DNA from: Escherichia phage vB_EcoP_CU10EC | Reading direction: 5' to 3' (one strand) | Sequence record: PQ435408.1 | Length of the DNA: 64,000 nucleotides | Part shown: in pieces, positions 20,337-20,909 of the stretch | Numbering within the stretch: the stretch's first letter is position 1 | How the letters are laid out: every line of letters begins with the position of its first letter | Notes under the pieces: model-generated | Database searches by the model: none | Told to the model about the DNA's origin: nothing | Seen by the model: only the letters and a program-made list of their open reading frames with translations | Position numbers and translations under genes: made by a program

Positions 20337-20585
20337 TTATTTAGAATATTGCCCTTTCGTATACTCAATGAAGTATCCGAACTTAGCTTCATACTCTGTA
20401 GGGGGATGTTTGCTTACATGGTGTTTAGCCATACTAAGTAATTCCTTTTCCAACTTATTTACATTGATTGTATCTGCTGTTTCCCCAATAGGGAACTTAT
20501 GATGGTAAGCTGGTTCAGAAGTAATTTTTCCGCTTTTAGCTAAAACTTTAACGGAAGCAAACCCAACTTTAGGGTCTATATCCAT
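20337..20585 (-). CDS. Hypothetical protein
   Basis: 82-aa ORF; its 5' end lies inside the tandem repeat. Confidence 0.35.
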   Translation of the reverse strand: MDIDPKVGFASVKVLAKSGKITSEPAYHHKFPIGETADTINVNKLEKELLSMAKHHVSKHPPTEYEAKFGYFIEYTKGQYSK

Positions 20586-20909
20586 TAGATTTTACAGCCC
20601 CCACCCCCGCACTCATTGTTTTCCAGGAAGCCCTTCAGCATTTCTTGGCTCTGAGCTTGCTCATGCAGATTCTGCTTAATTTTTCCGCTTTTAGCTAAAA
20701 CTTTAACGGAAGCAAACCCAACTTTAGGGTCTATATCCATTAGATTTTACAGCACCCACCCCCGCACTCATTGTTTTCCAGGAAGCCCTTCAGCATTTCT
20801 TGGCTCTGAGCTTGCTCATGCAGATTCTGCTCCCACCCCCGCACTCATTGTTTTCCAGGAAGCCCTTCAGCATTTCTTGGCTCTGAGCTTGCTCATGCAG
20901 ATTCTGCTT
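20523..20909. repeat. Tandem repeat, ~155-bp unit x 2.5 with one SNP between copies
   Basis: Direct sequence identity; SNP C/A at 20599/20754 is exactly 155 bp apart; third copy is the 78-bp right half only. Confidence 0.9.

Follow-up and report, generated by a model that had tools for sequence, protein, structure and literature searches.

In heterotype false duplication, a known category of assembly artefact, both alleles of a heterozygous or polymorphic site are kept and placed next to each other on a single scaffold, sometimes with a gap between them (Ko et al. 2022, Genome Biol 23:205, PMC9516828). The consequences are false gene gains and broken genes (PMC9516828). A related structure is found in the output of reference-free SNP callers, which is given as pairs of sequences of 2k+1 nucleotides with the SNP at the centre (PMC6364478). 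Bubbles of this kind in an assembly graph are normally popped, or their arms are reported as alternatives. It is known that assemblers of the SPAdes type leave k-mer overlaps at the ends of contigs, at the ends of circular contigs and at scaffold gaps.

The tandem repeat at positions 20522-20908 of the window (the whole stretch of 64,000 nt analysed here, from Escherichia phage vB_EcoP_CU10EC, PQ435408.1) resembles each of these. As in heterotype false duplication, both alleles were kept on one scaffold. That error was described in a diploid animal, whereas the sites seen here are single-SNP bubbles of 2k+1 nucleotides, the minimal scale of such an error, from a probably mixed phage population, and they can be diagnosed from the sequence itself. 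In unit length and in having the variant at its centre, the repeat agrees exactly with the pairs of the SNP callers for k = 77; the alternatives, however, were written in series. The leftover overlaps of SPAdes-type assemblers have their likeness in the identical 77-mers beside the gap at 57468-57605 and in the extra 77-nt copy at 20832-20908, and the value displayed here is k = 77 only. The repeat is almost certainly a false duplication, in which a de Bruijn graph assembler or scaffolder with k = 77 wrote out two alleles, and not a feature of the genome.

The array is present in the written sequence, far beyond chance. Exact 77-mer bookkeeping and base-by-base comparison gave the layout U/A(77)-C-B(77)/A-A-B/B/D, where the first and last blocks are the flanks, A and B at the sides of the variant are 77-mers, and the central letters are the variant bases C and A. 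The 77-mer A starts at 20522 and 20677, and the 77-mer B at 20600, 20755 and 20832. Tandem Repeats Finder reported a period of 155 (2.0 copies, 99% matches) for 20522-20831 and a period of 77 (2.0 copies, 100% matches) for 20755-20908. When the two 155-nt copies were compared directly, the sole mismatch was C at 20599 against A at 20754, at unit offset 78. The unit is 2x77+1 nt long, with the SNP dead centre, as in a single-SNP bubble. The initial annotation had reported a 155-bp tandem repeat at a gene junction, and the repeat is there as described, with a shift of one base in its coordinates. An array does lie at the reported 20523-20909, but its true bounds are 20522-20908; likewise, a partial third copy does lie to the right of the SNP, but it measures exactly 77 nt and not 78. 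Beyond this third copy, a chance extension of three nucleotides (TAA) relative to copy 1 is common to the B/A and B/D joins. Neither the relation 155 = 2x77+1 with a central SNP nor the three further loci of the window with the same 77-nt signature had been pointed out before.

The first copy of A (20522-20598), repeated exactly at 20677, contains codons 1-21 of an 82-aa gene on the minus strand (ATG at 20585-20583), the TAATG overlap of stop and start, and the last 4 codons of the gene upstream. Next to it is the variant base at 20599; with allele C, which is the allele of all relatives, the minus-strand codon 20597-20599 reads GGC (Gly). The first copy of B (20600-20676), to the right of the variant, encodes the stretch ending in KQNLHEQAQSQEMLKGFLENNECGGG. 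The whole second bubble arm (20677-20831) is the block that seems to be falsely duplicated: it consists of A (20677-20753), allele A at 20754, with which the minus-strand codon reads TGC (Cys), and B (20755-20831). The third copy of B (20832-20908) is interpreted as an untrimmed 77-nt overlap opening the next graph edge, after which the true downstream sequence follows. At the B/A junction (20676/20677), GATTCTGCT is followed by TAATTTTTCC, and at the B/B junction (20831/20832), GATTCTGCT is followed by CCCACCCCC.

It had been noted that the unit contains the start of the 82-aa gene and the last codons of the upstream gene, and that the SNP changes Gly to Cys. This is correct: the unit includes the first 21 codons of the former and about 30 codons plus the stop (20587-20585) of the latter, and the codon changes from GGC to TGC. 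The 82-aa gene (20337-20585, minus strand; phrog_29724, function unknown) is intact. The upstream gene, which belongs to the family PF13876, is broken by the array. Its N-terminal 110 codons lie at 20909-21239 (minus strand), and the true gene is 21239-20909 joined to 20676-20585. As written, the third copy of B causes a frameshift, which yields SRICMSKLRAKKC followed by a stop. When 20677-20908 was removed, the gene became an ORF of 140 aa plus stop that starts with the ATG at 21239 and ends with ENNECGGGGCKI, and its stop codon TAA shares one base with the start codon ATG of the 82-aa gene. Collapse to one unit, which had been proposed with renewed ORF calling as a check, is the proper repair. 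The 140-aa product with Gly is on record as an exact match on 10 public contigs. By exact look-up in about 15 billion proteins, the 158-aa ORF, the 149-aa version of it that begins at the ATG and carries the SRICMSKLRAKKC tail, and the chimeric ORFs of 51 and 34 aa were all absent. The suspicion that the junction creates the C-terminus of the 158-aa ORF is borne out, no such product being on record.

In the related sequences the junction is in single copy. The window represents an N4-like phage of E. coli, genus Gamaleyavirus. Its closest phage match in GenBank is IME11 (96.7% identity, 82% of the region covered). Both IME11 and phage 24-32N show one clean alignment gap of 232 nt facing 20677-20908. 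By blastn, the segments 20300-20679, 20677-20831 and 20832-21300 land on the same interval in IME11, and also on one interval in L011, a contig of 72 kb that stems from a different sequencing run and shares 98-99% identity with the window in this region. The single-copy carriers are these two phages and nine independently assembled contigs (L005-L012 and L014). The view taken in the initial annotation, that the repeat joins two alleles, agrees with the single copy in all eleven. The 82-aa protein occurs in identical form on 18 public contigs. In nine of the ten places shown, the PF13876 gene stands directly before it, its last base coinciding exactly with the first one of the 82-aa gene; in the tenth (L013), the contig end is too near for the upstream gene to be included. 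No repeated 40-mer was found in any of the fetched loci L001-L014, and the internal B/A junction had no match in the collections of viral, metagenome and genome contigs.

Independent places on this scaffold show k = 77 again. All exact direct repeats of at least 20 nt in the 64 kb fall within four loci (20522-20908, 39271-39580, 41042-41793 and 57391-57682), all built of 77-nt blocks. Because the repeats are confined in this way, the window sequence is taken to be a scaffold that a graph assembler with k = 77 produced. At 39271-39580, inside rIIA, two units of 155 nt stand in tandem, with G or A at offset 78 (39348/39503). The extra 155 nt, which is not a multiple of three, splits rIIA as written into ORFs of 595 and 310 aa. 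After collapse, a single ORF of 854 aa is obtained, the length of the rIIA CDS of IME11 (2565 nt). The G/A difference is a synonymous third-position transition in an Ile codon (ATC/ATT).

The locus at 41042-41793 holds four bubble arms in series, of 221, 221, 155 and 155 nt, with a common final 77-mer. The two units of 221 nt (41042-41483) follow the formula 77+1+65+1+77 and have two differences per unit. The central base of the 155-nt units (41484-41638 and 41639-41793) is the third or the first allele: through the four units, the variable base at position 78 from the 3' end is C, T, G and C. This site determines Ala, Thr or Pro at residue 66 of a 79-aa gene, and the second difference (C/A) affects the stem of a terminator hairpin. 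At its start, the last arm has this hairpin in a fold-back form, in which the loop and its left flank are reverse-complemented. Either a fold-back artefact of the reads or an inversion of the loop might account for this reversal. By blastn, all four units map to one interval of IME11.

At 57391-57682, a run of 138 N (57468-57605) is flanked by identical 77-mers (57391-57467 and 57606-57682). The two flanks overlap by 76-77 nt on phage AN24P2 (blastn). Therefore, no sequence is missing at this position; the gap is not real, and a 77-mer has been written twice. A search for inverted 40-mers as a sign of further graph artefacts gave none.

These features suggest the following course of events. 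The sequenced material would have held C or A at one site, corresponding to Gly or Cys in the tail of the PF13876 gene. In a k = 77 graph, this would produce two parallel edges, each of 77 + 1 + 77 = 155 nt with the variant in the middle. The path builder may then have placed both edges in series, rather than choosing one. At non-adjacent joins, or jumps, the next edge would be written whole, with its 77-nt vertex overlap untrimmed. The written result would thus be U-A-C-B, then A-A-B, then B-D, whereas the true genome would be U-A-(C)-B-D with one copy. Two such jumps would be needed at 20522-20908 (to the arm A-y-B, with y the variant base, and then to B-D), one at 39271-39580, three at 41042-41793, and one, with Ns, at the gap.

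We infer both the program and the step responsible for the duplication. The assembler was most likely SPAdes, for which 77 is the usual largest k with reads of about 150 nt. A textbook graph walk cannot return from B to A, which counts against the k = 77 reading; alternative edges would seemingly have to be strung together during scaffolding or when the path was written. It also counts against it that the joins differ, one site having an extra B, one having none, and one having Ns. Finally, the TAA shared by the B/A and B/D joins can be read as microhomology, although the chance of such sharing is about 1/64.

The origin of the bubble is a separate matter, nested within the k = 77 explanation. 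It should be mentioned that the sole possible biology at 20522-20908 is the Gly/Cys difference, as a minor variant or as a sequencing error at an invariant Gly. The two forms of the tail are ECGGGGCKI and ECGGGCCKI (in full, ENNECGGG, then Gly or Cys, then CKI and the stop). On the coding strand, the variant is a G>T substitution that immediately follows a G-rich run: GGGGGTGGG, then G>T, then GC. G-rich contexts are known hot spots of substitution errors in Illumina sequencing. All 26 relatives inspected (among them IME11, 24-32N, L005-L012, L014 and 15 cluster members) have Gly before the last Cys, and their tails read C[E/D/G]GGGC[K/T]I or CAGCKI. The protein with the Cys allele was absent from the same collection of about 15 billion proteins by exact look-up, and the exact Cys-allele context was not found in viral contigs. 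A looser Cys-allele pattern gave three matches on two distinct contigs, L015 and L016, which were rejected as unrelated chance matches; the third match is on L017, which is the copy of L015 in IMG/VR.

The A at 20754 might accordingly be no real variant at all, but a read error that recurs within the G-rich run, often enough for the bubble to persist in the graph. The sequence context of the G>T change, the invariant Gly, the absence of the Cys protein and the fact that homologous-context searches gave chance matches only all favour this reading, as do the three alleles and the flipped hairpin loop at 41042-41793, typical of fold-back read artefacts. Low-coverage error bubbles, however, are normally removed by assemblers. 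Moreover, the bubble at 39348/39503 is synonymous and resembles true strain variation, so that the sample probably contained more than one haplotype. With these points on both sides, a read error is a serious candidate for the origin of the bubble, though somewhat less probable than its opposite. If it is not a read error, the Cys allele would be a rare minor variant. The bubbles mean that more than one version of these sites was among the reads, and the sample probably had at least two haplotypes of the N4-like phage.

The duplicates might also have been made after assembly, by a script or tool that concatenated graph segments or by the joining of overlapping contigs from a mixed sample, the overlaps being left untrimmed. 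In naive concatenation of edges, each segment would be written with its full 77-nt vertex, and every improper join seen here does open in this manner. The gap of 138 N, however, suggests a scaffolder that estimates distances and not plain concatenation, and the overlaps at the other joins were properly trimmed. Joining after assembly is therefore considered improbable, though not negligible.

A further reading concerns the A allele and not the copy: it would be a real, selected variant, in which the invariant Gly before the last Cys is replaced by a third Cys in the conserved C-x-G-G-G-C-K-I tail of an Acb4-family sponge. This is quite unlikely. On this view, diversifying pressure would act on the tail as a working Cys motif, which might serve, for instance, assembly that depends on disulfides or a metal; the tandem copy would remain an artefact.

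A real duplication, in which slippage or unequal recombination first duplicated 155 nt and then 77 nt of the phage genome and one copy later mutated, is very hard to accept even though the sequence as written contains the array and a 3-nt TAA stands at both joins: it requires a mutation exactly at the centre of a unit of exactly 2x77+1 nt, and the same geometry twice more in 64 kb beside a run of N with identical 77-mers on its two sides; it cuts the PF13876 gene short and, through the sister array, would knock out rIIA; its junction is found in no relative or public contig and the junction ORFs are absent from the record; and its geometry is not independent of assembly parameters, all repeat units being built of 77-nt blocks. 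The variant of this model with TAA as microhomology was rejected on the k = 77 geometry and its recurrence.

If the k = 77 explanation holds, the scaffold contains 232 + 155 + 531 false bases and a spurious gap of 138 N with a 77-nt duplicated flank. Repair would mean removing 20677-20908, 39426-39580 and, except for its true continuation, 41263-41793, and reducing 57391-57682 to a single 77-mer. A gene of an anti-defence family and rIIA are broken, and false copies lie across the 79-aa gene and the terminator hairpin upstream of it. Gene callers would report false proteins from such a sequence, namely the ORFs of 158, 51 and 34 aa and the two halves of rIIA. A simple rule (a unit of 2k+1 with a central mismatch, and identical k-mers around N runs) can flag errors of this type automatically, without reads.

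The broken gene deserves further description. The family PF13876 was founded by Acb4, an anti-CBASS nucleotide sponge of phage SPO1 (PMC11722364; PDB 9e4w). As a tetramer, SPO1 Acb4 is reported to act as a sponge by binding cyclic nucleotide signals, and to block CBASS (PMC11722364). The product of the gene in the window matched the PF13876 profile with 105.3 bits (gathering cut-off 27) over profile positions 1-82 of 82. Compared with the SPO1 Acb4 chain 9e4w, it gave E = 7e-5 over residues 60-102, with a common ENFNxEIGR motif. Unlike SPO1 Acb4 (96 aa), the gene in the window encodes 140 aa, with a C-terminal tail of about 26 aa ending in C-x-G-G-G-C-K-I; the SPO1 chain (97 residues) is too short to contain this Cys-Gly tail. 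In PHROGs, both this gene and the 82-aa gene are listed only as "unknown function".

The start of the PF13876 gene should also be mentioned. The mechanical ORF (20790-21266) was listed from a TTG at 21266, and relatives start the gene at the ATG corresponding to 21239. The TTG is probably unused, because GAGGA is found 6 nt upstream of the ATG at 21239. At its other end, the DNA of the last 30 or so codons of the gene (20585-20676 plus 20909-20925; LHEQAQSQEMLKGFLENNEC-x-GGGCKI) is nearly identical across two otherwise divergent gene types of 126 and 140 aa (L002, L005-L008). This might reflect either a boundary of mosaic recombination or a strongly constrained Cys-Gly tail.

On the minus strand of 19698-21239, the genes of the Acb4 family (PF13876), of 82 aa and of a Tad2-like protein (PF11195) are neighbours, immediately downstream of the virion RNA polymerase. 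At the same place, relatives have Sequestin (PF21825) or Tad2-like genes instead. From its gene content, this region looks like a variable cluster of anti-defence genes in N4-like phages. The Tad2-like ORF (19698-20330) was listed as 210 aa from a GTG; relatives annotate 162-166 aa, and the listed start is probably too far upstream. Farther along, a tRNA-Ile gene with the unusual anticodon AAT is located at 21544-21622 on the minus strand, which relatives annotate as tRNA-Ile, "tRNA-Xle" or "tRNA-OTHER".
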